DNA of 64,000 nt from a virus (IMGVR_UViG_3300028653_000011); one strand, 5' to 3'. Shown: positions 3,731 through 46,894, numbered from the stretch's first letter. The notes: generated by a model not told the origin, from the letters alone. A program made the numbers and translations.

Positions 3731-4150
3731 ATGGAGCTCAAGGCACAGTCACCCACGCTGATGATGAGCGAGGCCCTGAAGGGTCGCCTGACCGACGATG
3801 ACGGGGTCGTGGGTGAGGATACACCACCCGTCCTTGCGGTGACCGTCGTTGCCGTCATCAAGGTGGGTGACAAGCAGACGGCGATCGTGGGCCTGCTGAG
3901 GAGCGCGCTGTTCGACACGGACACGCCAGAGCTGGAGTTCAAGGTGCAGCTCTCCGATGCCCTCGACTTCGTCGCCGCCAAGTCGTTGTTGTTTCAAGGC
4001 TTTGAGCTGCACCACGGCGCCACCTGCGCCGTCGCTGTTGAAGGCCCCTTCATCGTCAAGGGTGCCCGGATCGATGACATCAACGTTGTTGAACAATTGT
4101 GCGTGCTGTGTTTGGGCCTCGAACGCACGATTCGCACCGTGACCGCCTAG
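3731..4150 (+). CDS. hypothetical protein
   Basis: 139-aa ORF in a co-directional run. No recognisable domain. Confidence 0.35.
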   Translation: MELKAQSPTLMMSEALKGRLTDDDGVVGEDTPPVLAVTVVAVIKVGDKQTAIVGLLRSALFDTDTPELEFKVQLSDALDFVAAKSLLFQGFELHHGATCAVAVEGPFIVKGARIDDINVVEQLCVLCLGLERTIRTVTA

Positions 4151-4159
4151 TTATTTGCC

Positions 4160-9407: not shown

Positions 9408-10004
9408 CAGCGCCTCGGCGCGGGGCTTGCGAGCCCTGTCGGTCGTCTTGATGTCCTTGGGCGGGTCTTTCGCTCGGGCCGACAATACGTTCCACACTAG
9501 GTCGCGGTCGATGGCTTTGGGCAGGTGCTTGGTGAAGTTGGCCTTGTCACCCGCTCCGAGCCATTGCCGCATCTGGGTGCCCGACACGTTGACGGTCTGT
9601 GACCGCTCGATGGGCCGGAGTTTAATCTGCCCGTGGGCGAGAAGGTTGCCTGCATACTTGCTCAAGGTGGCGTAGTTGGCCTTCAGGTCGTCGGGGTCGG
9701 AGTAGATGTTGAAGGTGTCAGTGGAACCTGCTGTGTCGGCATCGCCCAATTCTTTGTAGACGTGGCCGATGGGTGAGCCACCGTAGGTGACGGTGACGTT
9801 GGCGGGTAGACTGGGCTCGATCGTCTCGTCCCACAGCTTCTTCATGTCGGCGCCGACGATGGGCACCTCACCCGGCCGCGCCCGATCGCTCAACGACACG
9901 TAGAGGTGCACTTCATCGTTGTTGCGCGCGGCGATGTTGACAAGGGCACTATGGCCAGCCTGCCAGGGCTTGAATGATCCCGCGATGATGCCGATCTTTG
10001 CCAA
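9372..10004 (-). CDS. cytidylyltransferase-like nucleotidyltransferase (NMNAT/NadD-like)
   Basis: GSFKPWQAGH (HxGH motif) and VSGTQMRQ (ISSTxxR-like motif). 210 aa. Confidence 0.65.
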   Translation of the reverse strand: MAKIGIIAGSFKPWQAGHSALVNIAARNNDEVHLYVSLSDRARPGEVPIVGADMKKLWDETIEPSLPANVTVTYGGSPIGHVYKELGDADTAGSTDTFNIYSDPDDLKANYATLSKYAGNLLAHGQIKLRPIERSQTVNVSGTQMRQWLGAGDKANFTKHLPKAIDRDLVWNVLSARAKDPPKDIKTTDRARKPRAEALLRHYVKLLLGR

Positions 10005-10041
10005 GTGATAGTGTGCTCCTGTCCGTTATAAGGTAAGTACC

Positions 10042-10497
10042 ATGGACGACAAGAACAAGGTTCGCCGGAAGGCGACTTCATGTGGCGGTCTACCGTGGCG
10101 AGTTCACCTGGGTCGAGTGCAGGTGCTGTTAGTCAAGCAATTTTCACACAGTGACAACTGGGGCGTGCCTAAGGGTCACCTCAAACCCGGTGAATCGCTG
10201 GAGGACTGCGCACGGCGAGAAATTCGTGAGGAGACTGGCATCGACGTTGGGCTGACCGAGCGCCTGCCTGACATCACGACGGTGCACCGTGGTGAGGAAA
10301 AGACGGTGGTGCTGTGGCTAGCGCTGCCCACTGCCGACGTTGAACCCTATCACGACAACCCCGACAGTGAAGTCGCCGATGCGCGTTGGTTCAACATCGA
10401 TGCACTGCCCATGATTCACAACTACCAGCGCACCATTGTCAAACACGGCATCGAGGCGATCAAAGTTGATCTCAACAGCTACGTGCCATCGCCGTGA
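10042..10497 (+). CDS. NUDIX hydrolase
   Basis: Nudix box GHLKPGESLEDCARREIREETGI. Confidence 0.8.
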   Translation: MDDKNKVRRKATSCGGLPWRVHLGRVQVLLVKQFSHSDNWGVPKGHLKPGESLEDCARREIREETGIDVGLTERLPDITTVHRGEEKTVVLWLALPTADVEPYHDNPDSEVADARWFNIDALPMIHNYQRTIVKHGIEAIKVDLNSYVPSP

Positions 10498-10736
10498 ACC
10501 TCGTTGACCTAAAACCCGGCAGCGTGTTTTACTGCCCACACGGTGCCACGATGTGGAGTAAATCTGCGGGGACCGGCGCATCAAAGGCGTTGGGTAGACT
10601 AAACACCCGCGAGCTGTGTTTAGTGGTGGCCTTGACCAAGGAGTCTGTGCTGATCGTGACGTCAGCACCGCGCGCGGTGTGGATCGACAAGATCAGTCAA
10701 CACGGTGACAACGATCGCATCCGCAAGCTGTGGTGA
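10494..10736 (+). CDS. PGD-family small protein
   Basis: LKPGSVFYCPHG ... LCLVVAL ... AVWIDKI. ATGA-coupled. Confidence 0.4.
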   Translation: MNLVDLKPGSVFYCPHGATMWSKSAGTGASKALGRLNTRELCLVVALTKESVLIVTSAPRAVWIDKISQHGDNDRIRKLW

Positions 10737-10776
10737 TGTGCCTGTAACTTTGGTGTGCGTGGCATACTTATCAGCG

Positions 10777-11817
10777 ATGGCGTCCGACAAACTGCTACGT
10801 GAGTTCATCAGTGAGGTGGTGCTGCTCACTGAGGAGGGCGAAGGTGGGGGTGAATACGCTGACTTATCAATGGCAGATGCTACGGGCAGTCCCTACGGCA
10901 TGTCGTTCGGCTCCAACGACGACCTCTACAACACCTTCGTCAAACCCTTCACCGACGTGGTGGGCGTGGCCGCGGGCAAGACCAAGGCCCTGTCACAGAA
11001 GGGTCAAACCCTGGTACGCGTTGCCTTCGAGGCCGTGGCCACGACGCTGGTGCCCATCCTCCGCGACTCCTACGGCGAGATCTTCGAGAAGGAGAAAGAG
11101 GAACTCGACAAGATTCGTCGTGACTACCACGACGTCTTTCAGGCCACTTGGGATGCCTTCGAAGACCACGATGCGTTGCTGGCCGCATTCCTCCATGCGC
11201 CGGCGTCGTTCATCACGTCGCGATTGGCCAAGCAATCACCCAAGGTCGTCATCAAGATGATCAGCGTGCTGACGGGCGGCACCCTCGACACGTGGCTCGA
11301 TAAGGTGAAGAACGCCTTCGGTGTCGAGGGTGGCCCATCAGGTGCCAACAAGCCGGTGCACGGTGGTGACAGTGGGCCCATGGAGAGCACCCTGCATGAG
11401 GATGGGGGTAACCACCCACCCATTGAGCAGGTGCTGACCAGCGACAAGGTGAGGGCCCGTGTCGCCGATGCGCCGGTGACCAAGAAGTTGCAGCAACGTG
11501 GGACGGAGATCACGCGCGGCACCCTGGAGAAGGTCTACAAGCAGGCCAAGGGGGTGTTGGGTGCCAAGTCGCTGGAGCAATTGCAACAGTTGGTGCATAG
11601 ACCGCTCAAGGGCCTCGACAAGATGAAGGGCGTCCCACAACAGGAGCGTCAGGCGGCGGAACAGCAGATCTTGGCGGCGGCGAAAAAGTCGATGCGTGAA
11701 TTCTACACGAAAAACCTCGAGGGTCAGGTGAAGCAGGCGCTCGACCAGGGAGTGCCCGACGACTCGCCTTATATCAGTGACTACCGGCGCGTCATCAGCA
11801 AAATCAAAGCACTGTGA
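10777..11817 (+). CDS. leader-family hypothetical protein
   Basis: Internal ATG of track ORF 10705-11817. N-terminal MASDKLLREFISEVVLL closely parallels the NUDIX 24079 leader MASDRDLLRQLIREVL. Confidence 0.5.
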   Translation: MASDKLLREFISEVVLLTEEGEGGGEYADLSMADATGSPYGMSFGSNDDLYNTFVKPFTDVVGVAAGKTKALSQKGQTLVRVAFEAVATTLVPILRDSYGEIFEKEKEELDKIRRDYHDVFQATWDAFEDHDALLAAFLHAPASFITSRLAKQSPKVVIKMISVLTGGTLDTWLDKVKNAFGVEGGPSGANKPVHGGDSGPMESTLHEDGGNHPPIEQVLTSDKVRARVADAPVTKKLQQRGTEITRGTLEKVYKQAKGVLGAKSLEQLQQLVHRPLKGLDKMKGVPQQERQAAEQQILAAAKKSMREFYTKNLEGQVKQALDQGVPDDSPYISDYRRVISKIKAL

Positions 11818-12490: not shown

Positions 12491-12699
12491 ACCGCGGCAC
12501 CGCCTGCAATGACTGCATCAGGTGTGCAGAGATCAAGGTCGCCGCACGTGGGGTGCGCGCCACTCTTCTTGAACCTGAGTTGAATCGCATGTTCCTGTGT
12601 CCGACGTGTGGCAACAAGCGGTGTCCCAAGGCAACCTACCACGACAACAAGTGCACCGGCTCCAATGCGCCCGGACAGGAAGGCAGCGACTACAAATGA
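12487..12699 (+). CDS. small zinc-ribbon protein
   Basis: CNDCIRC ... CPTCGNKRC. ATGA-coupled on both sides. Confidence 0.45.
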   Translation: MNRGTACNDCIRCAEIKVAARGVRATLLEPELNRMFLCPTCGNKRCPKATYHDNKCTGSNAPGQEGSDYK

Positions 12700-14231
12700 G
12701 TGCCGATATTGAGTGGGATAAATCGGTGATCTTGAACGCTGACAATGAACATCTCCTTGCTTTGCCAGTCATGTCGTTCATCAAGGGATTGGTCGAGCGG
12801 TACGGCGCTAGCGTTGACACGTGTCTCGATGCCCGCAAGCACCGCAGCATCGTTGACTGCGACTTCGCTCGTTCACCCGAGGAGCTCGACTCATCATGGC
12901 GTGCGGCACCCCCACCTGCCGACCTCATCGATCGCCGCGTCGAGATCACCGGGCCGCCCACCCGCAAGGGCGTCATCAATGCTCTCAATTCGGGCGCTGA
13001 CGTCTTCATGGCCGACTTTGAGGACTCATGCTCACCGACGTGGGACAACCTGATCAGTGGTCAGGTCAATCTCTTCAATGCCGTTCGTCGCACCATTACC
13101 TACGACGATCCTACGACGGGCAAACACTACTCGCTCAATGACAAGCCAGCGGTGTTGATGGTCAGGCCCCGGGGCTGGCACCTCAAGGAGAAGCACGTCA
13201 GGCTCGATGGCAAGCCCGTGCCTGCGGCCCTGGTCGACTTCGGTCTCTATGTCTTCAACAATGCACACGAACTGTTGTCACGTGGGTCAGGCCCGTATCT
13301 GTACCTGCCCAAGATGGAGAGTCACCACGAGGCGAAGCTGTGGGACGATGTCTGTTCCTACGCAGAGCAGGTACTCAACCTGCCCATGGGCGCCATTCGC
13401 ACGACGTGCCTGATCGAGACGCTGCCTGCCGCCTTCTGTATGGACCGCATCATCTACGCCCTCCGCGACCGCATCGTGGGCCTCAACTGCGGGCGCTGGG
13501 ACTACATCTTCTCCTTCATCAAGAAGCGCCACGATGACCCGAGCGCGGTGTTACCCGATCGCTCGCTGTTGACGATGGACAAGGCATTCCTCAACGCCTA
13601 CGATGAGCTGTTGGTGCAGACGTGCCACAAGCGCGGCATCCACGCGATGGGCGGCATGGCGGCGCAGATCCCGATCAAGGGCAATGCCGAGGCCAATGAC
13701 GTCGCCATGGAGAAGGTACACACCGACAAGTTGCGTGAAGCAGCGATGGGCCACGACGGCACTTGGGTCGCCCACCCGGGTCTGATCCAGATCGCTCGTG
13801 AGGCCTTCAAGGACTGCGGGCCCAATCAGATCGATCGGCCACGCACCAATCGACCCATCACTCGCGACGAGCTGTTGTTGGTGCCGTCAGGTCCCTGCAC
13901 CGAGGAAGGCCTGCGCCACAACATCAGGGTTGGCATCCAATACCTCGAGGCGTGGTTGAGCGGCAATGGCTGCGTGCCCCTGTACAACCTGATGGAGGAC
14001 GCGGCGACGGCCGAGATCTCACGTGCCCAAATATGGCAGCAACTACACCACGGTGCGATCGTCGGCGGGCGCCCACTGACCTACGTCAGGTTGGCGGACA
14101 TCATCAGCCAAGAAACAATGCCACTGGTGGGCGCGCGGATCGACGATGCGATCAGGTTGTTCATGAAGGTTGCATGCGACCCGCACGAGTTCACCGACTT
14201 TCTGACGCTGCCCGCCTACGACATGCTGTAA
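12696..14231 (+). CDS. aceB: malate synthase A
   Basis: Collinear with E. coli AceB throughout (RRVEITGP, FMADFEDS, GLNCGRWDYIFS, MGGMAAQIP, GHDGTWVAHPGL, CVPLYNLMEDAATAEISR). ATG at 12696 overlaps the upstream stop. Confidence 0.9.
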   Translation: MSADIEWDKSVILNADNEHLLALPVMSFIKGLVERYGASVDTCLDARKHRSIVDCDFARSPEELDSSWRAAPPPADLIDRRVEITGPPTRKGVINALNSGADVFMADFEDSCSPTWDNLISGQVNLFNAVRRTITYDDPTTGKHYSLNDKPAVLMVRPRGWHLKEKHVRLDGKPVPAALVDFGLYVFNNAHELLSRGSGPYLYLPKMESHHEAKLWDDVCSYAEQVLNLPMGAIRTTCLIETLPAAFCMDRIIYALRDRIVGLNCGRWDYIFSFIKKRHDDPSAVLPDRSLLTMDKAFLNAYDELLVQTCHKRGIHAMGGMAAQIPIKGNAEANDVAMEKVHTDKLREAAMGHDGTWVAHPGLIQIAREAFKDCGPNQIDRPRTNRPITRDELLLVPSGPCTEEGLRHNIRVGIQYLEAWLSGNGCVPLYNLMEDAATAEISRAQIWQQLHHGAIVGGRPLTYVRLADIISQETMPLVGARIDDAIRLFMKVACDPHEFTDFLTLPAYDML

Positions 14232-14246: not shown

Positions 14247-15629
14247 ATGGATGACATCAAACGACCCTACACTCCCGCTGACGTCAAGCGCCTGCAGGGC
14301 CGCACCCGAATCGTACACTCGCTGGCCGAGAATGGTGCCGGTCGATTACGTGCTATGATGGTGAACCAATCCGTGCGGGCGTTGGGAGCGCAGACTGGCA
14401 ACCAAGCGGTGCAGATGGTCAAGGCAGGATTGAAAGCCATATATGCGTCAGGTTGGCAAGTTGCCGCCGACGCCAACACGTCAGGCCAGACCTACCCAGA
14501 TCAGTCACTGTACCCCGTCGACAGCGTGCCCACCCTGGTCAGGCGCATCAACAATGCACTGCTCCGTGCCGAGCAGATCGATGCGATGGAAGAGGCAGAT
14601 GGCCAACGCAGCGAGAATCATCGTCACTGGTTAGCGCCCATCGTTGCAGATGCTGAGGCAGGCTTTGGCGGTCACCTCAACACCTATGAACTTGTCAAGG
14701 CGTTGATCGAGGCCGGTGCGGCAGGCATTCACCTCGAGGATCAGCTGTCGAGCGCGAAAAAATGCGGGCATTTAAATGGGAAAGTGCTCATCCCGACGTC
14801 TCAAGCGATCAACAACCTCGTCGCCGCCCGCCTCGCTGCCGACGTGCTCGAGGTGCCGACGGTCATCATTGCTCGCACCGATGCACTGAGTGCGCAATTG
14901 ATAACCAGTGATATTGACGAACGAGATCGCCAGTTCGTTGCACCAACTAGTCGCACTTCGGAAGGTTTCTACCACCTGACGGGCGATCCCATGCAGCGGA
15001 CGATCGCTCGTGGCCTCGCCTATGCGCCCTACGCCGACCTGCTGTGGTTCGAGACGTCAACGCCCGATTTGGCGCAAGCCAAGCAATTCGCTGAGGCGAT
15101 CCACGCACAGTTCCCGGGCAAGCAGTTGGCCTTCAATTGTTCGCCGTCGTTCAAGTGGCGCAAGCACCTGACGGACGATCAGATCGCCTCGTTTCAGGAT
15201 GACCTACACGCGATGGGTTATGTCTTCCTCTTTGTAACCCTCGCGGGTTGGCACGCCAATGCCAGCAGCGTCTTCGAACTGGCGCTCGATTATCACCAGC
15301 GTGGCATGGGTGCCTACGTCAAGTTGCAGGATCGGGAATTCACGCTCGAACAAGCGGGCTACACCGCCGTCAAGCACCAGCGCGAAGCCGGCACCTCATA
15401 CTTCGACGCGATCGTTAGTGTCATCACCGGCGGTACTTCGTCGACGTTAGCGATGAAGGGCTCGACTGAGGCCGAGCAGTTCTCTGAACATGCAACCCCG
15501 TACGGGGTAGGATTACCCTATGGCGAAGAAGTCGAAGAAGAAGCGGGAAAAGACGGTGGTGTGCACGGATGTCGGGCAAGCGAAGTTCGCGCCCCAGCAG
15601 ACGTACGCCCTGACGCTGACCCGGTTTGA
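14247..15629 (+). CDS. aceA: isocitrate lyase, with a ~45-aa C-terminal extension
   Basis: KKCGHLNGK catalytic motif, [22 protein letters not shown], ends ...GSTEAEQF like AceA. The frame then continues ~45 aa further and overlaps the next gene. Confidence 0.9.
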
Positions 15630-17540: not shown

Positions 17541-17957
17541 ATGCGTGACGCGGGTTGGCTGGTGCTGGCGATCGTGGGTTGGGGTTGTTGGCCCGTCACC
17601 CAGGCGCTGGCGACTCGCTACATGCACCCGTTGTCAGTGCAGTTGACCAACGTTTGCATCTGTGGCGCGCTGGCGCCCATCCTCTACGTGTGGATGCGAT
17701 CGAACGCTCAAGTGGGCAGCTTCAACGTGCCCGGGGTGTTGTGGACGCTGGCGTCGACAGTGCTAGCGGGCATGGCGGGCCTCGGCTTTCTGTTCGCCAC
17801 CAAGCAACGACCCGCCAGTGAAGTGCTGTCGTACACTCAAGTCTACCCGGCCCTATCATTCATCATGTGTTGGGTGACACTGGGCGAGACGTTCACACTG
17901 GTGAAGGTCATCGGCGCGGTGCTGTTGGTCGCCGGTTGCGTCGTCATGAACCAGTGA
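17541..17957 (+). CDS. small 4-TM membrane protein (DMT/EamA-like)
   Basis: Four hydrophobic helices, C-terminal ...GAVLLVAGCVVM typical of small DMT-type transporters. Confidence 0.4.
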   Translation: MRDAGWLVLAIVGWGCWPVTQALATRYMHPLSVQLTNVCICGALAPILYVWMRSNAQVGSFNVPGVLWTLASTVLAGMAGLGFLFATKQRPASEVLSYTQVYPALSFIMCWVTLGETFTLVKVIGAVLLVAGCVVMNQ

Positions 17958-19339: not shown

Positions 19340-19587
19340 TTCACTATAGGTCAGGTGACGTACCCATGGTCGGCGATCGGGTGATGATTTCGCCCGAGTC
19401 GCCACGCGTTCGAACAGGACGAAGGGCAGCAAAGAGCGAAGGCACCGTAACACAATTGGGTTGTGACTTGTGTGATCCGATGCCAGACTTAGTCTTCGTC
19501 GATTGGGACGATGAGATTGGGTCGACAATGCCGACAAGCGACACCATGTTGAGTGATCTGATTCTAGTGAAGAGAGGTTCAACATGA
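19336..19587 (+). CDS. small hypothetical protein
   Basis: ATGA-coupled at both ends. MIHYRSGDVPMVGDRVMI... weakly PGD-family-like. Confidence 0.35.
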   Translation: MIHYRSGDVPMVGDRVMISPESPRVRTGRRAAKSEGTVTQLGCDLCDPMPDLVFVDWDDEIGSTMPTSDTMLSDLILVKRGST

Positions 19588-20420
19588 GCATCCTCGTTCT
19601 CGACGGCGCAAATTTGCTACACCGCGCCCGCAGTGGCTTTCAATTGGGTGACTTCGCAACCGTCTACAACTTCTTCCGCCAGCTACGCCCGTTGGTCGAC
19701 CAATTCAAACCTACGAGGGTCTATATGACACTCGAGGGGGCACCCAAGCGGCAACTGGCGCTGCTCCCGGAGTACAAGGCCCACCGCATCATCGACGTCA
19801 CCACTGACGAGGGTGCCAAGAAGCAGGCGTCACTCGTCGACTTTCGCCGGCAGTCTGCGCTGATCGTTGAGCTGGTGTCCGCACACTTTCCCATCAGCGT
19901 CATCCGTCATCCCGATTTTGAGGGGGACGACGTGATCATGTCTATCGTGAACCGTTCGTCGTCAAGTGCTGAGTTCATCATTGTGTCGACCGACAGCGAC
20001 TTCACACAGATGTTGCAGAATGGCGTCGGCAACGTGCGCCTCTACAACCCGGTGACCAAGAAGTTCGTCGAGGCACCCGTCGATTATTCTTACGTGCTGT
20101 GGAAAGCACTACGAGGCGATGGCTGTGACAACATCCCGGCACTGGTCACTGAAGCGAAGGCACTGGAGCTGGTTCATGATCCTGAGTCGCTTGAGGGAAT
20201 GCGCCTGATGCCGGCCTTCGCCGAACAGTTCGAGCGCAACTATAAGCTCATCGCCTTGTGCACGTTGACGGATGCCGAGGCGATGCAGACGCAGTCGTCT
20301 GCGCCCACCCGCGACTGGGACGCGGTGAAGGCCAAGTTTGATGAGTGGGCCTTCAAGTCGCTGACCAAGGACGGCACCTGGGACAAATTTGTGGCGACGT
20401 TTGAACCCCTGTGGGGGTGA
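19584..20420 (+). CDS. 5'-3' exonuclease / flap endonuclease (T4 RNase H, T5 D15 family)
   Basis: PIN/FEN motifs LVLDGANLLHRA, FEGDDVIMSIV, IIVSTDSDFTQML, KALRGDGCDNIPAL. Confidence 0.85.
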   Translation: MSILVLDGANLLHRARSGFQLGDFATVYNFFRQLRPLVDQFKPTRVYMTLEGAPKRQLALLPEYKAHRIIDVTTDEGAKKQASLVDFRRQSALIVELVSAHFPISVIRHPDFEGDDVIMSIVNRSSSSAEFIIVSTDSDFTQMLQNGVGNVRLYNPVTKKFVEAPVDYSYVLWKALRGDGCDNIPALVTEAKALELVHDPESLEGMRLMPAFAEQFERNYKLIALCTLTDAEAMQTQSSAPTRDWDAVKAKFDEWAFKSLTKDGTWDKFVATFEPLWG

Positions 20421-25668: not shown

Positions 25669-26139
25669 GTGAACATCTTCGTCGTCGATGAAGATCCAAT
25701 TCTGGCCGCGCGCGACCTGTGCAACAAACACGTGGTCAAAATGTTGCTGGAGAGCGCTCAACTGCTAGTCACCGCTTTCCCACCCGGGACTACGCGCTAC
25801 AAGCACACGCACGTCAATCACCCGTGTGCCAAGTGGGTGCGCGCATCATTGTCGAACTATGAGTGGCTGTTGAAGCACGCTTGTGAGCTCTGCAATGAAT
25901 ACACGCGGCGTTACGGCAAAGTTCACAAGACCGAGGAAGTGATCGCTTCGCTCGAAGAAGCTCCCACGCTCGATGATGTCGGGTTGACGTCCTTCGTGCA
26001 GGCAATGCCCGACAAGTACAAGGGACCCAATGCAGTCGCGGCATACCGCGCCTATTACGTCGGTGACAAGGCACGCTTTGCCAAGTGGGCACCTCGTGCT
26101 GTGCCTCCTACGTGGTGGCCTCATGAGGAGACACCGTGA
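25669..26139 (+). CDS. hypothetical protein
   Basis: 156 aa with a conserved-looking HTHVNHPCAKW...CELC region. No confident family. Confidence 0.5.
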   Translation: MNIFVVDEDPILAARDLCNKHVVKMLLESAQLLVTAFPPGTTRYKHTHVNHPCAKWVRASLSNYEWLLKHACELCNEYTRRYGKVHKTEEVIASLEEAPTLDDVGLTSFVQAMPDKYKGPNAVAAYRAYYVGDKARFAKWAPRAVPPTWWPHEETP

Positions 26140-26318
26140 AAAATACGGGCTTCTTTCTCCGCTTTCTTCGTGGGTTCACGTGCAAACACGAGTGGGGCAA
26201 CGTCGTCGAAATCGTTCACGACGAAGGTGACCTCATTCGCGACTGGCTCGGTTCGAGCTACACCAGACACACGTACATCTGCAATCAGTGTGGCAAGGAA
26301 AAGACATGGACACGTTGA
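26136..26318 (+). CDS. small Cys/His protein
   Basis: GTGA-coupled. CKHEW...CNQCGKE. Confidence 0.35.
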   Translation: MKNTGFFLRFLRGFTCKHEWGNVVEIVHDEGDLIRDWLGSSYTRHTYICNQCGKEKTWTR

Positions 26319-27370
26319 CGAAAGAGCCTGGTTTCACCCGTTCACTGCGGGAAGAGTTGGTGCAGGTGTCGCCCGACTTTCAGGTTCGGGTGCACCGGCC
26401 GGGGGCGTTGTCCGACGCTGAGTTGATGGCACTGACGATGCGGCACGATGCTGACCCGGCGATGTATCACCCGGAGCCCGTTAATGCCAGTGGAGTATCG
26501 ATCCTGGGCGACGTCACCCCTGCCGACGAGGCGATGGGCATGAGCGCGATCAAACGCGGTGAAGTTGCCATGGTGGTACTGGCGGGCCGGGCCCCCAAGT
26601 TGCTTGCCAAGATCCCGGGCGTTGACACCAGCATGCTGGCGTGGAAGCTGATGCAGGGCGGCGACATGCCCGTGTGGATCATGGTGGCGCCTGACCAATT
26701 GGCGCCGGCGGAGCACCACATCAAGCAATTGGTGCTGTCACCCAACCTCAGGGGCACCCTCTTCACGCAGTTCGAGGGGTACCGCCTGACACCCGACAAT
26801 AGGATGGCATGGGTGGCACCGGGGGTGCCCGACTTGGGCCCGTTGGGCAACGGTGACCTGGGCCCGGCACTGCACGAGGCAGGCATCCTCGCCGAACACC
26901 CCAACGTCAAGTGGGTCTTCATCTGCAACGTCGACAACGTCATGGCGTCGCCGCACGAGGGCCTCATCGGCCTTCACATCAGGCACCGGGCACCCATCAC
27001 CTGTGAGGTCGTCGACCTGCACCCGGACGATCGGGGCGGCGTGCTGGCTCGCGTCGAGGGTTATCGTCAGCTCGCCGAGGATTGGCGGTTACCGTCAGGT
27101 TTTGCGAAGCCGGGCATGTTCTATAGCACTAACACCATGCTCGTCAACGTCGAGGTGTTGCAGACCCACTTTGCATGGCGCTGGCACCGCATCCGGCGGG
27201 AAGTGGGCAATCGACTGGTGGTGCAGCACGAGCGCTTGCTCCAGCAGTACACCGAGGAATTCGGTGCCGTCTACGTGCGGGTACCGAGGGACATGCGGTA
27301 CGTGTCGGCCAAGACGACGGCGGGTCTCGAAGAAGCGGGTAAGGCAATCCTACGAACGAGGCACCCATGA
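26306..27370 (+). CDS. UDP-sugar pyrophosphorylase-like nucleotidyltransferase (UDPGP family)
   Basis: GPLGNGDLGPAL resembles the UAP1 PDGNGGLYRAL motif. The ~350-aa architecture fits. AAGGAAAAG SD before the ATG at 26306. Confidence 0.6.
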   Translation: MDTLTKEPGFTRSLREELVQVSPDFQVRVHRPGALSDAELMALTMRHDADPAMYHPEPVNASGVSILGDVTPADEAMGMSAIKRGEVAMVVLAGRAPKLLAKIPGVDTSMLAWKLMQGGDMPVWIMVAPDQLAPAEHHIKQLVLSPNLRGTLFTQFEGYRLTPDNRMAWVAPGVPDLGPLGNGDLGPALHEAGILAEHPNVKWVFICNVDNVMASPHEGLIGLHIRHRAPITCEVVDLHPDDRGGVLARVEGYRQLAEDWRLPSGFAKPGMFYSTNTMLVNVEVLQTHFAWRWHRIRREVGNRLVVQHERLLQQYTEEFGAVYVRVPRDMRYVSAKTTAGLEEAGKAILRTRHP

Positions 27371-27723
27371 TCCTCTCACTCGTCGCTGTCGTGGCGGCAT
27401 CGGCATTCGGTTCTGTCGTCATCATCACCAAGTCGGCGCTGGCATTCGCCAACGTCTTCGACAAGCGCGAGCGTGAAGACGACAGTGGCGTGAAGCTGTA
27501 CCCATTCGAGCACGTGGTCAATGGAAAAACTCGCTGTGTAGTGTGTGGTTACTACGCTAGTAATGCCACTAGTGGCAATCCTGCATTGGGACCAGGGGCA
27601 CCGCGTGCGTGCGAGGATGATACTTGCAGTGCTCGGTGGGATGACATCGCTCACCTTCACATGACGTGTCGTTCGTGCCGCAGCGCGTGGTTGATGAGGA
27701 CGGCACCGGCTGACCTCACGTGA
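27367..27723 (+). CDS. membrane-anchored Cys-rich protein
   Basis: N-terminal TM (ILSLVAVVAASAFGSVVII), CVVCGYY...CRSCRSAW. ATGA-coupled. Confidence 0.45.
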   Translation: MILSLVAVVAASAFGSVVIITKSALAFANVFDKREREDDSGVKLYPFEHVVNGKTRCVVCGYYASNATSGNPALGPGAPRACEDDTCSARWDDIAHLHMTCRSCRSAWLMRTAPADLT

Positions 27724-28139
27724 GGATACCACCCGTTTCACCCTACGGCCTCATTCAGGAGACGCTGTGGCCCGACGAATGGTTGATCCTCGTCACCGGC
27801 ACCATGCTCAATTGCACCACGCGCAAGCAGGTTGAACGGGTGCTGCCCGACTTTCGTTGTCGGTGGCCCACCCCTCAGGTCTTTGTCACCGCCTCATACG
27901 ACGACGTCTTTGAGTTGATCAAGCCACTGGGTTTCGGCAACAGGCGCACGGGCAACCTGTTGAAGATGACGCGTGCCTACCTGATGACCGACTGGCACCA
28001 CGCCCGTGAACTGCCCGGCGTCGGCGAGTACGGTGCACGCAGTTGGGAGATCTTCTGCTTGGGCGTGTTGGGCACGACGCCACCGAAGGATCATGCCTTG
28101 CTACAGTATTGGGACTGGGCGGTGACCTTACCGAGCTGA
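27720..28139 (+). CDS. HhH-GPD DNA glycosylase, MBD4 glycosylase-domain-like
   Basis: WLILVTGTMLNCTTRKQV ... LPGVGEYGARSWEIFC ... PKDHALLQYWDW parallels the MBD4 catalytic domain (LLIATIFLNRT ... LHGIGKYGNDSYRIFC ... PEDHKLNKYHDW). Confidence 0.6.
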   Translation: MRIPPVSPYGLIQETLWPDEWLILVTGTMLNCTTRKQVERVLPDFRCRWPTPQVFVTASYDDVFELIKPLGFGNRRTGNLLKMTRAYLMTDWHHARELPGVGEYGARSWEIFCLGVLGTTPPKDHALLQYWDWAVTLPS

Positions 28140-29003
28140 CAACGGGCCGATGATCTTGTTGTGCTCGAGGAAGCCACGAATGGTGTCGTGGCAGGTGAAC
28201 AGCGAGATGTCAGGCACGTTCCTCTTGAAGCTGTCGGCGGTGCCGATGAGGTCGCCTGCAGCATTGAAGGCCGGGCCACCCGAGTTGCCGAAGAAGACGG
28301 CCGCTGACACCTGCACGTAGTCGTGAGGTTTACCTTCATTGTTGGTGTACTCTGACAGGTGCCCCGACACGTAACCGTGGGTGTATGTCCACCACATGCC
28401 CGCCGGCATGCCGATGATGTGAACCTCGTCGCCAGGTGAAGGTGTGGTCGACATCAGGTGAGCAATGGGATGATCACCAGGATCCTTGACGCGGATCAAC
28501 GCTAGGTCATTGTACATGTCGACGGCGATGCACGCGCTGTCATGGTACGTTTGTTGTGAGTCGGCGATGTCGCCGCGCGTTGAGTATATCACGGGTTGAC
28601 CCACCGGCGTCCACTCCGTCAACTGAGGAGGCGGTGCCGTCGTCACTCCGTTGATCTGGTCGATCATTTGTTTCAGGATCGCCGTCGCGTCGAGCGGTGG
28701 CTTAGCGTCGGCGGGCTTGCCGATGTCATCAATGCAGTGTTCGGCCGTCAGGATGACGTTGGCACTGACCCACACGCCGGTGCAGTAGGAGTGCAGCTTG
28801 GCACCGCGCCCTGCGTTGATCGGCTCGATGACGTTGCCCTCACTGTCGGCGTAGTGTACCAGGGCGACGGTCTCATACTCCAGTTGGGCGATCATCTCGG
28901 CATGTGTCAATGGAGGTGGTGTAGCAATGGTGATGTAGTGGTAGGCATGTGTACAGCAAGCGGGTAGAAAGGCAATGCCCAACCAGGCCAACAACTTCTT
29001 CAT
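28128..29003 (-). CDS. trypsin-like serine protease (S1 family) lipoprotein
   Basis: Signal plus lipobox (FLPACC). Catalytic LTAEHC and GNSGGP motifs. Confidence 0.8.
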   Translation of the reverse strand: MKKLLAWLGIAFLPACCTHAYHYITIATPPPLTHAEMIAQLEYETVALVHYADSEGNVIEPINAGRGAKLHSYCTGVWVSANVILTAEHCIDDIGKPADAKPPLDATAILKQMIDQINGVTTAPPPQLTEWTPVGQPVIYSTRGDIADSQQTYHDSACIAVDMYNDLALIRVKDPGDHPIAHLMSTTPSPGDEVHIIGMPAGMWWTYTHGYVSGHLSEYTNNEGKPHDYVQVSAAVFFGNSGGPAFNAAGDLIGTADSFKRNVPDISLFTCHDTIRGFLEHNKIIGPLSAR

Positions 29004-29088
29004 TCACTGCACCTCTGATCTATACTATGGCGTCTCGTGCGCACCTACACCACATTGTCACCGGGATGTAACACAATGAACGGGGAGC

Positions 29089-29118
29089 GTGTACGGGTGT
29101 GATGTCATACAGTAGAGT
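29089..29118 (+). promoter_or_regulatory. promoter-like element upstream of nei (GTGTACG-N17-TAGAGT)
   Basis: Same -35-like / 17-nt spacer / TAGAGT architecture, 19 nt before ATG 29137. A TAGAGTGTTG context also lies upstream of 43947. Confidence 0.35.
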
Positions 29119-29136
29119 GTTGAATGGAGCACTACA

Positions 29137-29991
29137 ATGCCAGAGGGACCTGAACTTCGAAAAAGTCGCGATGACCTACAATTCTTGGTCGGTCGCTACA
29201 TCACCCGCGTTGAGGCGGTGGGCGGACGCTATGCGAAGGTGCCGCCCGTTGGTCTCAACGACTTCACTGGCTCAAGCAAATGTGCCGAGTGCCTCTACCT
29301 GAAGGAGTACGGTCGCATCGAGGAAGTCGAGGTCAAGGGCAAGTTCATGTGGTGGAGCATTCGAGCGGCGTGGTCGCTGTGGTGCACCTACGGCATGACG
29401 GGCAGGTGGAGCACCACCCGAGACGATAAGCACTGTGCTGTGGTGCTGACCCACCGTGGTGCTGCAGGCGACGAGGCCTGCGTCTACTTCAATGATCCAC
29501 GGCACTTCGGCACCCTGAAGTTCGTCTATGACCGTGACGGCGACAAGACGCAGGCCAAGCTCGACGCGCTGGGTCCCGACATGTTGGGCTCACCGCCGGC
29601 CCCTGAACAATTCATCGCCCGGCTGGGCAAGAAACCCAATCGCACCCTGGCCGAGGCGCTGATGGACCAATCTGTCGTCTCGGGAGTGGGCAATTACGTC
29701 AAGGCCGAGGGCCTCTACATGGCCGCACTATCGCCACACCGCACCGTCGCCGAGTGTTCGGTCGCCGAACTGATGCACTTGGGCACGCGGTTGACCCAGG
29801 TCATGATGGAATCGTACACGTCTGGTGGCGCGACGATCAGCACCTACCGCACCGTCGACGGCACCAAAGGTGGGGCGCAGCGACGCTTTGCGGTGTATGG
29901 TAATATGACGGACCCGATGGGTCACCCGGTGATCAAAGAGGCGACCAAGGACGGGCGCACTACCCACTGGTGCCCGGCGATCCAAAAGTGA
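29137..29991 (+). CDS. nei: Nei/Fpg-family DNA glycosylase (endonuclease VIII-like, degenerate zinc finger)
   Basis: N-terminal MPEGPELRK, H2TH motif LMDQSVVSGVGNYVKAEGLYMAALSP. C-terminus retains WCP but lacks the second Cys pair. Confidence 0.85.
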   Translation: MPEGPELRKSRDDLQFLVGRYITRVEAVGGRYAKVPPVGLNDFTGSSKCAECLYLKEYGRIEEVEVKGKFMWWSIRAAWSLWCTYGMTGRWSTTRDDKHCAVVLTHRGAAGDEACVYFNDPRHFGTLKFVYDRDGDKTQAKLDALGPDMLGSPPAPEQFIARLGKKPNRTLAEALMDQSVVSGVGNYVKAEGLYMAALSPHRTVAECSVAELMHLGTRLTQVMMESYTSGGATISTYRTVDGTKGGAQRRFAVYGNMTDPMGHPVIKEATKDGRTTHWCPAIQK

Positions 29992-31528: not shown

Positions 31529-32491
31529 TTGTCCATGTTGAACCGTAGTTTTACGATCGTGGCACTGTTGGGCACGTTGGCCTTCAATGCAGGCTGTTCG
31601 AGCCAAGACGTGCCGCCTGCACACAAGGGGCGCATGTTCGAGAAGACGGGCATGTTGAAGTTCTACACCGGAGGCAAGGGGTTTGATGGGCCAGTGTTGG
31701 GCCCGGGCACCTATTTCACCGGCGTGTATCCCGAAGTCAGGATCGTCGATTGCTCGACGCGGACGTTCAAGGAACCCATGACGTCGATGACGAAGGACGG
31801 CGTCCAATTCGCGCTCGATGTCTACATCACCGTCAGTGCCAACTGCGACAATGATCAGGCCACCGAGATCCTGCTCAATAAGCTGGCCCCCACGGGCAAA
31901 GTCGACGCACCGAACCCGGGTGCCGGTGCAGGTAACGGCGTTCCCGACGAGAAAGATCCCGTTGAGACTGATGCTGACCGTGCCATCACTTCGAGGCAGG
32001 TGTACAGCACCTTCGTGCGCCCCGCGTTGGGCGAAGCGGTGCGGCAGGCGATCGCCAGCTACGACGCCAACGACATCAACTCCCACCGGGAAGAACTGTT
32101 CGGCCGCATCAAGACGAAGCTCGACTCTGACCTGAAGGGTTCACCATCGCTGGTCACCGTCGTCAACTTCAACCTGTCCAACTTCAAGCTGCCCGATGAG
32201 ATGGCCAACGCCGCCGCCGACCGAGCGACACAACAGGTGCTCCGCGACAAGTCGGTCGCTGAACAGGAACGCATCAAGGTTGAGACGGCGACGGCACTGT
32301 TGCAGGTCGACAAGACCGCCGCCGAGGCACAAGCTGAAGCACGTAAGATCGATGTGGTCGGTGCTGCGCTGCACCGCAATCCCGAGTACTACGTCCGCGA
32401 CGTCTATTACTACGCCGCGGAGCACGGAGGCAGCGTGATGCTACCGACGAATCCCAACGTCATCCTGTCGATGACGCCCGGACACAAGTAG
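31529..32491 (+). CDS. SPFH/band-7 (prohibitin/HflC-like) domain lipoprotein
   Basis: Signal plus lipobox (FNAGC). SPFH-like core and a C-terminal Ala/Glu/Gln-rich coiled region. Confidence 0.6.
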   Translation: MSMLNRSFTIVALLGTLAFNAGCSSQDVPPAHKGRMFEKTGMLKFYTGGKGFDGPVLGPGTYFTGVYPEVRIVDCSTRTFKEPMTSMTKDGVQFALDVYITVSANCDNDQATEILLNKLAPTGKVDAPNPGAGAGNGVPDEKDPVETDADRAITSRQVYSTFVRPALGEAVRQAIASYDANDINSHREELFGRIKTKLDSDLKGSPSLVTVVNFNLSNFKLPDEMANAAADRATQQVLRDKSVAEQERIKVETATALLQVDKTAAEAQAEARKIDVVGAALHRNPEYYVRDVYYYAAEHGGSVMLPTNPNVILSMTPGHK

Positions 32492-33806: not shown

Positions 33807-34571
33807 ATGTGCACCCTCATCGTCCTCAGTGAAGCGATCGATGGTTACCCACTCGTCGTCGCCGCCAATCGCGATGAGCACTATGATCGGCCTTCGCTGC
33901 CGCCTGCAATCACCGGTGATGTCATCTGCCCGCGTGATCTCCACAAGGGTGGCACGTGGCTGGGCGTGGCTCGTGGTGGCTGGTTCGCCGGGTTGACCAA
34001 CCAAGTCGACGCCCACCAACCGCACCTGCTGGCGTCACGAGGCCACGTCGTTGATGCTTGCCTCAAGGCCGGCAATCACCTGGCCGTGGCCCAATACCTG
34101 CAGGGGCTTGATCGTGGCGTCTACAACAACTTCAACCTGGTCTTTGGCAGGCCCGGCGCCATTTTTTTGTGCCGTGTCTGGGGGCTGCACGCGCTGGAGA
34201 TGCTCGTGGTGCCTGCAGGAACCAGCGTCTTCACCAATGATTGTTGGGACGGGCAGTTTCAGGCCAAGGCCGAGCGCGCCCGCGAATTGACCACCCACCT
34301 CGCCGGCGCAGTACCGATCCACGACGTCAAGAACGCGTTGTTCGCAGTGCTGTCAGACCACCAACACGGTGACGATCCTCGTCAATCGATGTGCATCCAT
34401 GCCGACGGTTGGGGCACTCGTAGCACCTCGATCATCACAGTGTCCAATGAGGGGGCCGTGGAGTACTACTATTCAGATGGTGCACCGTGTAGGAGTCCCG
34501 GTGTTGCATGTGTGGGCGTTCTATCGATTGATGACGAACTCATCACTGACGCAGACCTGAAGAAACCCTGA
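33807..34571 (+). CDS. NRDE/TANGO2-family protein
   Basis: N-terminal MCTLIVL (Cys2) and AANRDE motif. Length ~250 aa typical of the family. Confidence 0.8.
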   Translation: MCTLIVLSEAIDGYPLVVAANRDEHYDRPSLPPAITGDVICPRDLHKGGTWLGVARGGWFAGLTNQVDAHQPHLLASRGHVVDACLKAGNHLAVAQYLQGLDRGVYNNFNLVFGRPGAIFLCRVWGLHALEMLVVPAGTSVFTNDCWDGQFQAKAERARELTTHLAGAVPIHDVKNALFAVLSDHQHGDDPRQSMCIHADGWGTRSTSIITVSNEGAVEYYYSDGAPCRSPGVACVGVLSIDDELITDADLKKP

Positions 34572-45266: not shown

Positions 45267-46052
45267 TCAATACGTGTAGACGTCATCGCCGATCGGGAAC
45301 AGTTTACGTTCAAAGCGTGACTCGCCACTGTGAACGGCACGCGCCTTGACGCTGACCAACCTCTCATCGGGCAGCACATAGGCCCACAGCTCGCCGCCAA
45401 AGCAACAACCACCGTCGAGGCCCACCGCTTTCGGGGTGATCAATGGCCTATTGAGGACGCTGTGACCGAAGAAGATGCGCTCAGGCCCGTCCCAAAAGTG
45501 GTGCCAAAAGCGCCAACCTTCGTTGGGAGGAATGCGACTCGGCCACATCGACTTGTCGTTGATCCTCATCTGACCATCGGCACCAAAGTCGTAGGGACAG
45601 ATGCACTGTATGTGGGTCAAGTGACGCACGGACTGGCGTTCGATGGGCACCCCTGGGAAGACGCCGGCATGGACGGCGACGGCGTTGAACTCTGGTAGAC
45701 GCAGGTACAGTGGCAACCGCCTGAAGTAGTCGTAGTGCTCGGGACGGAGCTGTGACCGGGTGACGACGTGAGACGGGGGTAGCTGACTCGGCAGCTTACC
45801 AGTGCGTGCCAGTACGTCTTCATGATCGAGGTGCCGGTGTTCATGGTTGCCCAGGATGCAGGCGGGTTTGCCTTGTCGCGCTTCGATCCGCATCGCCAGG
45901 TCAACGCACTTGCCGCTCTCGGGACCTCGGTCGACGGTATCACCGAGGAAGATGACCCAGTCTTCAGGACGCGCCTTGCACTTGTCGAGCAGTTCTTGTT
46001 GTTCTGCATAACAACCTTGAACATCACCCACTAGAATTGTGCGCATTGCCAT
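45267..46052 (-). CDS. metallophosphoesterase (PPP family; ApaH / lambda-phosphatase-like)
   Basis: GDVQGC, LGDTVDRGP, GNHE motifs. Confidence 0.8.
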   Translation of the reverse strand: MAMRTILVGDVQGCYAEQQELLDKCKARPEDWVIFLGDTVDRGPESGKCVDLAMRIEARQGKPACILGNHEHRHLDHEDVLARTGKLPSQLPPSHVVTRSQLRPEHYDYFRRLPLYLRLPEFNAVAVHAGVFPGVPIERQSVRHLTHIQCICPYDFGADGQMRINDKSMWPSRIPPNEGWRFWHHFWDGPERIFFGHSVLNRPLITPKAVGLDGGCCFGGELWAYVLPDERLVSVKARAVHSGESRFERKLFPIGDDVYTY

Positions 46053-46894
46053 TTGAACCCATATGCTGTTTCTTTTTCACCAGTCAAACACGCCTTAATT
46101 GTATCTTTATGGGCACCAATACCCAGCTCTTTTAGAGCTAACACAGCGTGTTTAATTGATGAAAAGGTGGCGACGATATTGCCATTTAATGATAATTGAT
46201 CAACTGCAATCCATGATGATTTCGTTTTCACTTTTGGAACATGAACGTCATCACCCGCCACTCTCCAATAAAAACCATGACTCAACATTACATGACCTAT
46301 TTTAACAGGAATCACTCGTTGGGTGGCTTTTGTTAATCCTTGTTCACTTAACCATATTTGTACTGCGCTTCGAGAATCGTGTAATTCTAAAAACTGTCCA
46401 TCAGTTGACCAACGTTCAATGCGTACTTTTTGTTGATTAGCACCTTGAGATCTATTTTGAATTTCTTCATCAGTGTACGGTGCTTTACGCCAACCAACGT
46501 GACTTCTATATTTATGTGCTTGACGAATTTTCTCATTTGTTTCAGGCGTTGGTTTCTTATGCGTTTGTGGCTTTCTCGTATAGAAGTCTTGTCCACCTAC
46601 AGTAAGATTGTAACCATATCCACCCATTCTGATGTTAGTATTTAATTTTGCGATCCAATAACGTTCACGATCATTGAGTTGTTCATCAGAACATTCTTCA
46701 ATGACTTCATATTTGAAATTTTCAAATCCATGTTTGATTAACGCACCCAAAATTGGTCTGCCCAATTTATTGTACTTTTTATGATGCGTTGCACCGTATT
46801 TGTAATTGCGCCAATGTATTTCTGGATCGACTTTTGATTGACCAACATACAGCTTATCATTGAGAATATTAAGAATCTTATAAATGTGACTCAT
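46031..46894 (-). CDS. GIY-YIG homing endonuclease
   Basis: IYKILNILNDKLYVGQS ... ERYWIAKLNT ... YN. The basic C-terminal half is a probable DNA-binding region. Confidence 0.85.
   Translation of the reverse strand: MSHIYKILNILNDKLYVGQSKVDPEIHWRNYKYGATHHKKYNKLGRPILGALIKHGFENFKYEVIEECSDEQLNDRERYWIAKLNTNIRMGGYGYNLTVGGQDFYTRKPQTHKKPTPETNEKIRQAHKYRSHVGWRKAPYTDEEIQNRSQGANQQKVRIERWSTDGQFLELHDSRSAVQIWLSEQGLTKATQRVIPVKIGHVMLSHGFYWRVAGDDVHVPKVKTKSSWIAVDQLSLNGNIVATFSSIKHAVLALKELGIGAHKDTIKACLTGEKETAYGFKWQCAQF
46031..46894 (-). mobile_element. free-standing homing-endonuclease gene in a low-GC island
   Basis: Marked drop in GC (~40% by eye) confined to this ORF, against ~60% flanks. Confidence 0.6.

Follow-up and report, generated by a model that had tools for sequence, protein, structure and literature searches.

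A stand-alone MBD4-type glycosylase linked to a zincless-finger Nei in an uncultured huge phage whose DNA probably contains 5-hydroxymethylcytosine

What a phage would repair with a glycosylase of the MBD4 type is the question raised by IMGVR_UViG_3300028653_000011, a viral stretch of 64,000 nucleotides that was analysed as a whole and is referred to below as the window. It encodes a stand-alone MBD4-type HhH-GPD DNA glycosylase (hereafter MBD4L) and, shortly downstream on the same strand, a Fpg/Nei-family enzyme with a zincless finger (hereafter Nei). The original prediction read these two genes, together with a lipoprotein protease gene lying between them, as a base-excision-repair module, and related it to deaminated or modified viral DNA or to host deaminase defences. 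Here we describe both enzymes, the linkage of their genes in phages and a T4-type dCMP hydroxymethylase encoded on the same contig, and we propose with moderate confidence that the pair guards phage DNA, probably containing 5-hydroxymethylcytosine (5hmC), against deamination.

The MBD4-type and Nei-type enzymes

The window coincides, at 100% identity, with positions 86001-150000 of a metagenomic contig of 359,321 bp (ena:ERZ27245402:k141_2233850), and nearly identical contigs of 359-361 kb were seen again in other samples. Genes of the window and contig include those for a phage lysozyme, GroEL, a FEN nuclease and a DnaE-type polymerase, along with numerous small open reading frames (ORFs) devoid of homologues, and on the basis of this content the window is assigned to the ~359 kb genome of an uncultured huge phage. 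No match to the region was obtained by megablast among 50,697 phage records, so there is no close cultured relative among them. In a tblastn search with GroEL the matches reached only ~45%, contaminating bacterial records being among them, and gave no guidance on taxonomy. The three ORFs described originally, of 139 (with a GTG start), 291 and 284 amino acids, were confirmed (Table 1); their G+C content at third codon positions (GC3) is 0.75-0.78, as is usual for the coding sequence of this genome, and scanning for promoters and terminators near them yielded no more sites than shuffled sequence did.

MBD4L is barely recognised by the Pfam HhH-GPD model (26.8 bits vs a cut-off of 26.2). In phmmer searches of the PDB its best matches were the glycosylase domains of MBD4 (E=1.5e-27, residues 3-134 to residues 3-134 without gaps; identity 38-40%). 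The second-best family was that of the Mig.MthI-type (Mig/TDG) thymine glycosylase 1kea, which reached only E=0.008; this larger Fe-S enzyme is also an HhH-GPD protein and has the same task, to remove the T or U that deamination of cytosine or methylcytosine leaves opposite G. An AlphaFold (AF2) model built from 35 homologues (pLDDT 96.2) was superimposed by Foldseek on the crystal structures of MBD4 with a TM score of 0.92 and an rmsd of 1.1 Å, the next family, again 1kea, giving a TM score of 0.64, and a profile built from 11 MBD4 domains of eukaryotes was matched in hhalign with a probability of 100% (E=8e-63, 140 columns). The alignment with the MBD4 domain along the whole product, as first proposed, is thus borne out, and it survives profile-profile comparison. 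The T:G task is also that of very-short-patch repair by E. coli Vsr, which is an endonuclease and not a glycosylase.

Residue conservation was counted in 145 stand-alone and 105 eukaryote-type sequences, residue i of MBD4L corresponding to residue i+436 of human MBD4. The HhH hairpin reads L98-P-G-V-G-E-Y-G105 (LPGVGEYG), and the C-terminal motif PPKDHALLQYWDW holds the catalytic Asp124, equivalent to human Asp560. Pocket and catalytic residues in human MBD4 are 447-449 (Gln449 being essential), Leu466, Tyr540 and Asp560 (PMC3479182). The pocket is kept in MBD4L, where L11-I12-Q13 stand for L447-V448-Q449, L30 for Leu466, N31 for N467 and Y104 for Tyr540. The stand-alone sequences show no variation at L447, Q449, N467, G538, Y540 and D560 and very little at L466 (142/145); G538, Y540 and D560 are also invariant in the eukaryote-type set. 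Bifunctional HhH enzymes carry the lyase Lys at the HhH position (PMC8307549), which in the alignment is occupied by Tyr104 of MBD4L. Because of this residue, and because an Fe-S cluster is missing, no Cys4 motif being present at the end of the protein, MBD4L should be a monofunctional glycosylase, and it is predicted to act on uracil, thymine or 5-hydroxymethyluracil (5hmU) opposite G.

Among the residues of human MBD4 that are not kept, Arg468, whose finger fills the place of the flipped base, and the pocket-lining Gly471 and Lys562 are C32, R35 and A126 in MBD4L, and Leu508 is Phe. Position 468 varies in eukaryote orthologues too (K in 41, R in 25, Q in 20 and C in nine), and judging from the alignment Arg468 is a mark of vertebrate MBD4, not of the entire family. 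An Arg at 471, three residues further on, is kept in 135 of the 145 stand-alone sequences and may substitute for the Arg468 finger in that clade, whose signature (C468, R471, F508, A562) differs from the eukaryote consensus (K/R468, G471, L508, K/M562). The eukaryotic MBD4 domain (human ~437-574, PDB 3iho, 4e9e-h, 4dk9 and 6vjw; mouse 1ngn and 4evv) has the same fold, length, pocket and catalytic residues as MBD4L, which differs in being stand-alone, with neither methyl-CpG-binding domain nor linker, phage-encoded and paired with Nei. With its 139 amino acids (115-200 in close relatives) MBD4L corresponds to the glycosylase domain alone, which is why we regard it as a member of the MBD4 domain family and not as an MBD4 orthologue in architecture.

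The second enzyme had been described as an MPEGPE protein of the Nei family whose zinc finger has degenerated, with WCP retained, and Pfam, NCBIfam and the family alignment agree. The Pfam models Fapy_DNA_glyco (2.6e-12) and H2TH (2.3e-13) match above threshold and Fapy_DNA_glyco_C just under it (1e-5, 25.7 bits, with a cut-off of 27 bits), the Fpg models of NCBIfam match over the full length (3e-38), and phrog_21295 matches at 3e-34. The protein starts with MPEGPE, Pro2 and Glu3 thus being present; in the alignment of the query and 31 phage homologues PEGPE was found in 31 of the 32 sequences, the exception being PEGAE in locus L016, and P2 and E3 in all of them. The best PDB matches (1e-29, phmmer) were 3a42, 3a45 and 3a46, which we take to be mimivirus Nei1 (MvNei1); NEIL1 was not matched at E<=1e-3 in the same search. 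K67-G-K69 aligns with the KGK loop of that protein, a K(H)-G-K loop is conserved in the phage homologues, and so is the finger Arg of GRTT(H/F)W (GRTTHW in the query). The zinc finger of the family follows the pattern C-x2(3)-C(H)-x16-18-C-x2-C, and a zincless variant is known in hNEIL1 and MvNei1 (PMC7139703). Instead of C-x2-C...C-x2-C the C-terminal finger has here a single Cys, C279 of WCP, which appears incidental, as it is Val in most relatives; nearly all members lack the four zinc ligands. With MvNei1 and human NEIL1 the phage enzyme shares Pro2/Glu3, the KGK loop, H2TH and a zincless beta-hairpin finger with Arg, at a considerable distance in sequence from MvNei1 and within a family of its own, phrog_21295. 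Of the two likenesses originally drawn, that to mimivirus Nei holds, as MvNei1 is the best solved relative, and that to NEIL1 concerns the zincless finger alone. The protein is predicted to be a bifunctional glycosylase/beta,delta-lyase. The two glycosylases each add a new member to a well-known family, that of the MBD4 domain in one case and the zincless Nei group in the other.

Linkage of the two genes and distribution of the MBD4 type

Sixty-three MBD4-type loci were compared by tblastn against the DNA of each locus, and 34 of them have a Nei gene no more than 8 kb from MBD4L. In the clade of the query, where MBD4L identities are 50-66%, the distance to the downstream Nei is 0.8-1.9 kb in nine loci and 5-6 kb in two more, usually with the lipoprotein protease gene between them on the opposite strand. 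In a distant clade (MBD4L 37-43% identical) the start of Nei follows that of MBD4L by 412-425 nt in 13 loci, with the genes adjoining each other or sharing a few bases (7992-8423 and 8416-9225 in L059, for example), which suggests co-translation. This clade has none of the other neighbours of the query clade, its gene order being FEN, DnaB, RNR, ClpP, ThyX, MBD4L, Nei, two small ORFs, a dUTPase_2/NT5C fusion and a second, divergent ThyX. That the linkage outlasts strong divergence and rearrangement of the neighbourhood argues for MBD4L and Nei being a functional pair, and a real repair pair. The module originally proposed therefore stands as far as the two glycosylases are concerned, linked as they are in two deeply diverged phage clades, and not for the protease, which shows no link to repair.

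The genes flanking the pair in the distant clade deserve mention on their own. In L059 they encode a canonical ThyX, the dUTPase_2/NT5C fusion and a divergent ThyX-like protein of 316 amino acids (L059:7327-7995, 9826-10776 and 10760-11710), and the same set is present in L044, L049-L052, L058, L061, L065, L066 and L069, with the divergent ThyX-like proteins 59-100% identical. It may represent an unrecognised pyrimidine-modification cluster.

The combination of a monofunctional glycosylase with a Nei-type lyase follows the same two-step logic as known partnerships. In the laboratory mixture of UDG and Endonuclease VIII ('USER'), an abasic site is formed and the beta,delta-lyase then leaves a one-nucleotide gap (10.1101/2024.12.05.627091), and in the mammalian protein partnership of TDG and NEIL1 the latter acts downstream, removing the sugar (PMC5566547). 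Unlike in these two cases, the phage genes are physically linked, and it is from this linkage that we infer the cooperation of their products.

As for the distribution of the family, a search of 5.8 billion proteins gave 156 clusters of MBD4L relatives (110-195 amino acids, 53-100% identity), nearly all of them metagenomic. An exhaustive search of 1.84 billion representatives gave 710 clusters at E<=1e-10, with short stand-alone proteins at the top; the lower-ranked matches were long proteins with the match at the C-terminus and 35-41% identity, and the ones sampled were MBD4 of spider, thrips and barley. In a neighbour-joining tree the sequences of eukaryote architecture formed one almost clean clan (78 of 81), and MBD4L was placed in a separate one. 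A scan seeded with two peptide patterns, which divergent members would escape, located one good locus in 185,579 bacterial and archaeal species genomes (one genome each), on a contig of a metagenome-assembled genome and among neighbours of the same phage-like kind, and the same scan of IMG/VR located 58 viral loci, many of them on contigs of 100-370 kb. By tblastn against deposited phages we found 16 records with an MBD4-type gene, among them the cultured phages Xp12 and S-TIM54, whose proteins match MBD4 at 5e-14 and 4e-15, respectively, vs about 5e-4 for EndoIII. The BFVD viral structure library held a single other protein with the MBD4 fold, from a granulovirus. The stand-alone MBD4 type is a phage family, almost absent from prokaryote genomes; the claim that such enzymes are unusual outside eukaryotes is right for prokaryotes and has to be given up for phages, where the family is sizeable. 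The only close non-eukaryote relatives of the eukaryotic MBD4 domain found here are phage proteins. In the literature no description of phage MBD4-type enzymes was found, and a phage-wide stand-alone MBD4 clade, paired with Nei and present in phages making C5-modified cytosine, appears undescribed.

Bacterial records with a close MBD4L were contigs of metagenome-assembled genomes (MAGs) only, L010 and P0081. The former (JBBAUR010000009.1, an 89 kb contig of a 'Bdellovibrionota bacterium' MAG) has UDPGP-like, NUDIX and FEN neighbours, a phage-like setting, and is probably phage DNA that was binned with a bacterium. In the latter (a 'Betaproteobacteria bacterium' MAG, locus L006) only NUDIX adjoins MBD4L, together with a phage lysozyme.

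Cytosine modification and what the pair may be for

A gene for a ThyA homologue lies 7.8-8.6 kb upstream of the first position of the window; the sequence carrying it (L070) matches the window with 0 mismatches and belongs to the same contig. The product is 52% identical to T4 dCMP hydroxymethylase (2.3e-71), vs 1e-7 to 1e-10 for thymidylate synthases, and will be referred to as dCH. According to the published, experimentally supported typing of ThyA homologues, in which Cys146 is the catalytic residue, N177D indicates dCMP as substrate and L143D/E a non-methyl product, and D169N marks 5-hydroxy-dCMP synthases, D169 being kept in 5hm-dCMP synthases of the T4 type (PMC13326640). This phage and 12 relatives have D143/C146/D169/D177, the same as T4. 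The flanks of dCH encode a nucleotide-sugar epimerase (phrog_540, 1e-66), two HslV-like peptidases, thymidine kinase, CCA/polyA polymerase, dCMP deaminase and Fe-SOD. Three of the five closest IMG/VR relatives of the dCH gene are on contigs that also bear MBD4L, and coinciding contig sizes tie dCH, the UDPGP-like gene described below and MBD4L together on many more contigs. Because a T4-type dCMP hydroxymethylase is encoded on the same contig, the DNA of this phage probably contains 5hmC, and the original suggestion of modified viral DNA gains support from it.

An independent parallel is provided by the Xanthomonas phage Xp12, in which cytosines are replaced by 5-methylcytosine (5mC) (PMC7653180). 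Its MBD4-type protein, QNN97216.1 (MT664984.1 46973-47455; L008:3914-4396), and relatives in FMYAK-P1, AXL1, Donnerlittchen and others are likewise phage-encoded and stand-alone, and have been annotated as hypothetical, ENDO3c or endonuclease III. The Xp12 protein is only ~32% identical to MBD4L, and its gene belongs to a nucleotide-modification operon, directly upstream of those for a HAD hydrolase, a ThyA homologue with D177, dCMP deaminase and DHFR. Xp12 is a 64 kb siphovirus, vs the huge phage studied here, and no Nei partner was found in it. Genes of the Xp12 type for ThyA, dCMP deaminase, HAD and DHFR were sought next to MBD4L in the 63 loci, and none was found.

Taken together, these data lead us to the following model. 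MBD4L would flip out and excise a pyrimidine (U, T or 5hmU) opposite G, leaving an abasic site that the Pro2-dependent beta,delta-lyase of Nei would cut to a one-nucleotide gap for polymerase and ligase, and Nei would itself remove oxidised or deaminated pyrimidines. The main lesion would be 5hmU:G, arising from deamination of 5hmC, besides U:G and T:G, and the pair would belong, along with a DenV-type glycosylase and a NUDIX hydrolase, to a less tightly knit block for genome maintenance. Substrates, hand-off between the enzymes and 5hmC in virion DNA are what we infer here from family, residues, gene linkage and the hydroxymethylase. Excision of 5hmU:G by MBD4 is described in PMC3479182 and PMC3458566, and 5hmU in a mispair with G is removed by Nei, MutM and Nth of E. 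coli (Hori 2003, as cited in PMC2673420). Since the substrates fit, dCH is encoded by the phage and Xp12 offers a parallel, repair of deamination damage in a 5hmC genome is the most economical reading, and we hold it with reasonable, by no means full, confidence. No host repair of T:G and 5hmU:G is known for C5-modified phage DNA.

Several observations weigh against it. The dCH gene is 35.5 kb away from the pair and not in the same operon, and among the genes of the ~84 kb inspected we recognised neither a dCTPase, a dNMP kinase nor a DNA glycosyltransferase. The joint presence of dCH and MBD4L was seen within one lineage and thus amounts to few independent events, and the cyanophage S-TIM54 has an MBD4-type gene and no known modification. 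T-even phages make hmC, yet none of them is among the 16 phage records with an MBD4-type gene found by tblastn, so that the link is not obligatory; no T-even record was among the phage matches to Nei either, and T4 itself is not known to have either gene. The gap-filling Arg468 of human MBD4 is Cys32 in MBD4L, about two thirds of the query-clade loci have no Nei within 8 kb, and NEIL1 gave no stimulation of TDG on T:G (PMC5566547).

Some of these points would be expected if the genes served generic genome maintenance (U:G, oxidised bases, UV dimers) and the presence of dCH were coincidental. MBD4-type, Nei, DenV-type and NUDIX proteins all belong to families with classical roles in repair or sanitation, CpG is not depleted in the window (rho 1.09), and MBD4 enzymes act on U:G too (PMC3458566); the distance to dCH and the absence of T-even phages among the MBD4-type matches fit as well. 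However, uracil repair is ordinarily carried out by UDG-family enzymes and not by the MBD4 type, and the MBD4-type gene occurs with genes for pyrimidine C5-modification, or related ones, in three separate phage lineages: Xp12 with its D177 ThyA homologue, the distant clade with two ThyX and dUTPase_2/NT5C, and the present lineage with the T4-type dCH. We therefore consider mere maintenance rather unlikely, though it is the alternative to be taken most seriously. It is improbable, in turn, that MBD4L, protease and Nei are neighbours by inherited synteny, with no joint function and with the glycosylases working independently. The position of the protease is equally conserved and has no plausible role in repair, and neither the majority of query-clade loci just mentioned nor the phages of the Xp12 type have a Nei at hand; but the pairing is kept in the distant clade among wholly different neighbours, with genes overlapping by a few nt, and a monofunctional glycosylase with a Nei-type lyase is a proven biochemical combination.

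The original prediction also considered the countering of host deaminase defences. Counter-defence against host cytosine deaminases, or an attack on host DNA that spares the modified DNA of the phage, would suit the general knowledge that phages with modified DNA commonly tell their own from host DNA. It strikes us as very improbable, as MBD4-type enzymes excise mispaired U, T or 5hmU and cannot degrade intact host DNA (PMC3479182), and in the loci examined there was neither a deaminase-defence context nor an anti-defence island.

Returning to repair of deaminated 5hmC, a virus would in that case carry repair enzymes that answer to a chemical weakness of the very base it modifies, given that deamination turns 5hmC into 5hmU, and 5mC into T, opposite G. 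A wider proposal is made only tentatively, as a possibility that we do not favour over its contrary: stand-alone MBD4-type enzymes, often in operons with a zincless Nei, could be an invention or a long-standing possession of phages with C5-modified cytosine genomes (5mC, 5hmC and derivatives), R471, F508 and A562 would fit 5-substituted or glycosylated uracils, and a direct ancestor would be shared with the eukaryotic MBD4 domain through horizontal transfer in either direction. The origin of that domain is a question on which the data bear, given that its closest non-eukaryote relatives are phage and not bacterial proteins. Phages with C5-modified cytosines may be recognisable in metagenomes by an MBD4-type gene, whether or not Nei accompanies it, and compact glycosylases of 139 amino acids may offer 5hmU:G or T:G specificity for epigenetic sequencing chemistry.

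Other genes of the block and of the contig

The features located in the window and on the contig are listed in Table 1. Two of them, lying in the same block as the pair, had escaped the original prediction: the Pyr_excise glycosylase and the nearby NUDIX hydrolase. The former, putative by its family match (40.3 bits vs a cut-off of 23), would be the third glycosylase of the block; it lies 1.6 kb upstream of MBD4L and is also found near MBD4L in five related loci. Its namesake, T4 DenV (Endonuclease V), is likewise a phage base-excision-repair enzyme, of a different fold and directed at UV pyrimidine dimers. NUDIX is the commonest upstream neighbour of MBD4L in the query clade and was found within 8 kb in 27 of the 63 loci; its best PDB matches are of the Ap4A hydrolase, MutT, NudG and NudI types, and it possibly has a role in nucleotide-pool sanitation or dNTP exclusion.

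Table 1. Features located in the window and on the contig from which it derives (window positions unless stated otherwise)
Feature	Position	Strand	Basis or remark
MBD4L, stand-alone MBD4-type HhH-GPD DNA glycosylase, 139 aa	27720..28139	+	phmmer, AlphaFold/Foldseek, hhalign
Fpg/Nei-family glycosylase/AP lyase, zincless finger, 284 aa	29137..29991	+	Pfam, NCBIfam, PDB, family alignment
ThyA homologue, T4-type dCMP hydroxymethylase (dCH), 251 aa	contig 77414-78169 (L070:757-1512)		35.5 kb upstream of MBD4L; E 2.3e-71 to T4 dCMP hydroxymethylase, signature residues
Lipoprotein S1 (trypsin/HtrA-like) serine protease, 291 aa	28128..29003	-	Trypsin_2 2.7e-18
Pyr_excise-family (T4 EndoV/DenV-type) pyrimidine-dimer glycosylase homologue	25669..26139	+	Pfam PF03013 4.1e-10
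NUDIX hydrolase, 190 aa	24079..24651	+	Pfam NUDIX 7.1e-18
UDPGP-family (UDP-sugar pyrophosphorylase-like) protein	26306..27370	+	Pfam UDPGP 1.2e-9
Cys-rich ORF, 118 aa	27367..27723	+	weak Prok-RING_2 and phrog_15307 matches only
FEN-type 5'-3' exonuclease	19584..20420	+	Pfam 5_3_exonuc_N 8.8e-18; phrog_107 exonuclease
Malate synthase	12597-14231	+	Pfam 1e-102
Isocitrate lyase	14247-15629	+	1e-101
GIY-YIG endonuclease	46031-46894	-	GC3 0.27
CN-hydrolase	1885-2664		host-like gene
Pterin-4a-carbinolamine dehydratase	3311-3721		host-like gene
Second NUDIX	10042-10497		host-like gene
EamA transporter domain	17541-17957		host-like gene
Band_7/SPFH protein	31529-32491		host-like gene
TANGO2-family protein	33807-34571		host-like gene
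Methionine aminopeptidase	51865-52623		host-like gene

A lipoprotein S1 protease between the glycosylases, as stated from the start, is indeed encoded there. Its gene is convergent with MBD4L, the 3' ends overlapping by 12 nt. The triad motifs of the query are TAEHC (His), NDLALI (Asp, read in the query only) and GNSGG (Ser), and motifs of the TAEHC type and GNSGG were both found in 10 of 19 other homologues. Signal peptide and lipobox Cys are conserved in the homologues, often as Cys-Cys; the lipobox of the query, LPAC, is non-canonical at -2, and the homologues have a canonical L/V-x-G/A-C(C) at the same place. The protease is present in 21 loci, in 20 of which it lies on the opposite strand just downstream of MBD4L, and the homologues in the 20 other loci hold this position at only 25-44% identity. 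It is a positionally conserved neighbour with no evident role in repair.

Immediately upstream of MBD4L, the UDPGP-like gene, the Cys-rich ORF and MBD4L would be translationally coupled, judging from their overlaps: the Cys-rich ORF, present only in this phage among the loci compared, has ATGA in common with the stop of the UDPGP-like gene, and its own stop overlaps the GTG start of MBD4L (GTGA). The UDPGP-like family comprises 65 proteins, is confined to this phage lineage and adjoins MBD4L in 18 of the 63 loci. The family consensus of the Gly-rich loop LxGGxGTRxG is LAGGAGTRxGGPK, and this loop is absent in the query and its closest relative P0401 (LAGR------APK) owing to a 6-aa in-frame deletion; several members have degenerate loops, and the GNGD and VDN motifs are kept. 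Catalytic activity of the protein in this phage is, on these grounds, doubtful. We considered it as a source of UDP-sugar for glycosylation of hmC and downgraded this idea, as the catalytic loop is deleted, the PDB gave no sequence match and no DNA glycosyltransferase was recognised.

The FEN-type exonuclease, which had been thought to complete short-patch repair, exists at the place indicated, and in 41 of the 63 loci it is no further than 8 kb from MBD4L. The idea of a dedicated role in that pathway was rejected, since this is a nuclease of general replication and is not needed after a beta,delta-lyase, whose product has no 5' flap or 5'-deoxyribose phosphate; a place in the pathway is thus not demonstrated.

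Elsewhere in the window, malate synthase adjoins isocitrate lyase, and together they make up a complete glyoxylate shunt encoded by the phage. In huge phages 98 genes for isocitrate lyase and 22 for malate synthase have been reported, adjacent in 20 genomes (bioRxiv 10.1101/2025.02.27.640493). The GIY-YIG gene, with a GC3 far below the ~0.75 found elsewhere in the window and a local G+C dip to 0.485, looks like a recently acquired homing endonuclease. The replicase of the phage is a bacterial-type DnaE Pol III alpha (1178 amino acids), with a separate RNase_T/DnaQ-like exonuclease (L152:1-408, 3951-4502; contig ~67.4-72 kb), and near this region there are a TnsA-like endonuclease and a DnaJ/WGR protein. 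With regard to oligonucleotide composition, and by a crude mononucleotide expectation, CCWGG occurs in the window at 0.49x and CTAG at 0.25x the expected frequency, GGATCC three times vs 20 expected, and GATC and GTCGAC are over-represented (1.8x and 3x, respectively); the rho of TpA is 0.5.

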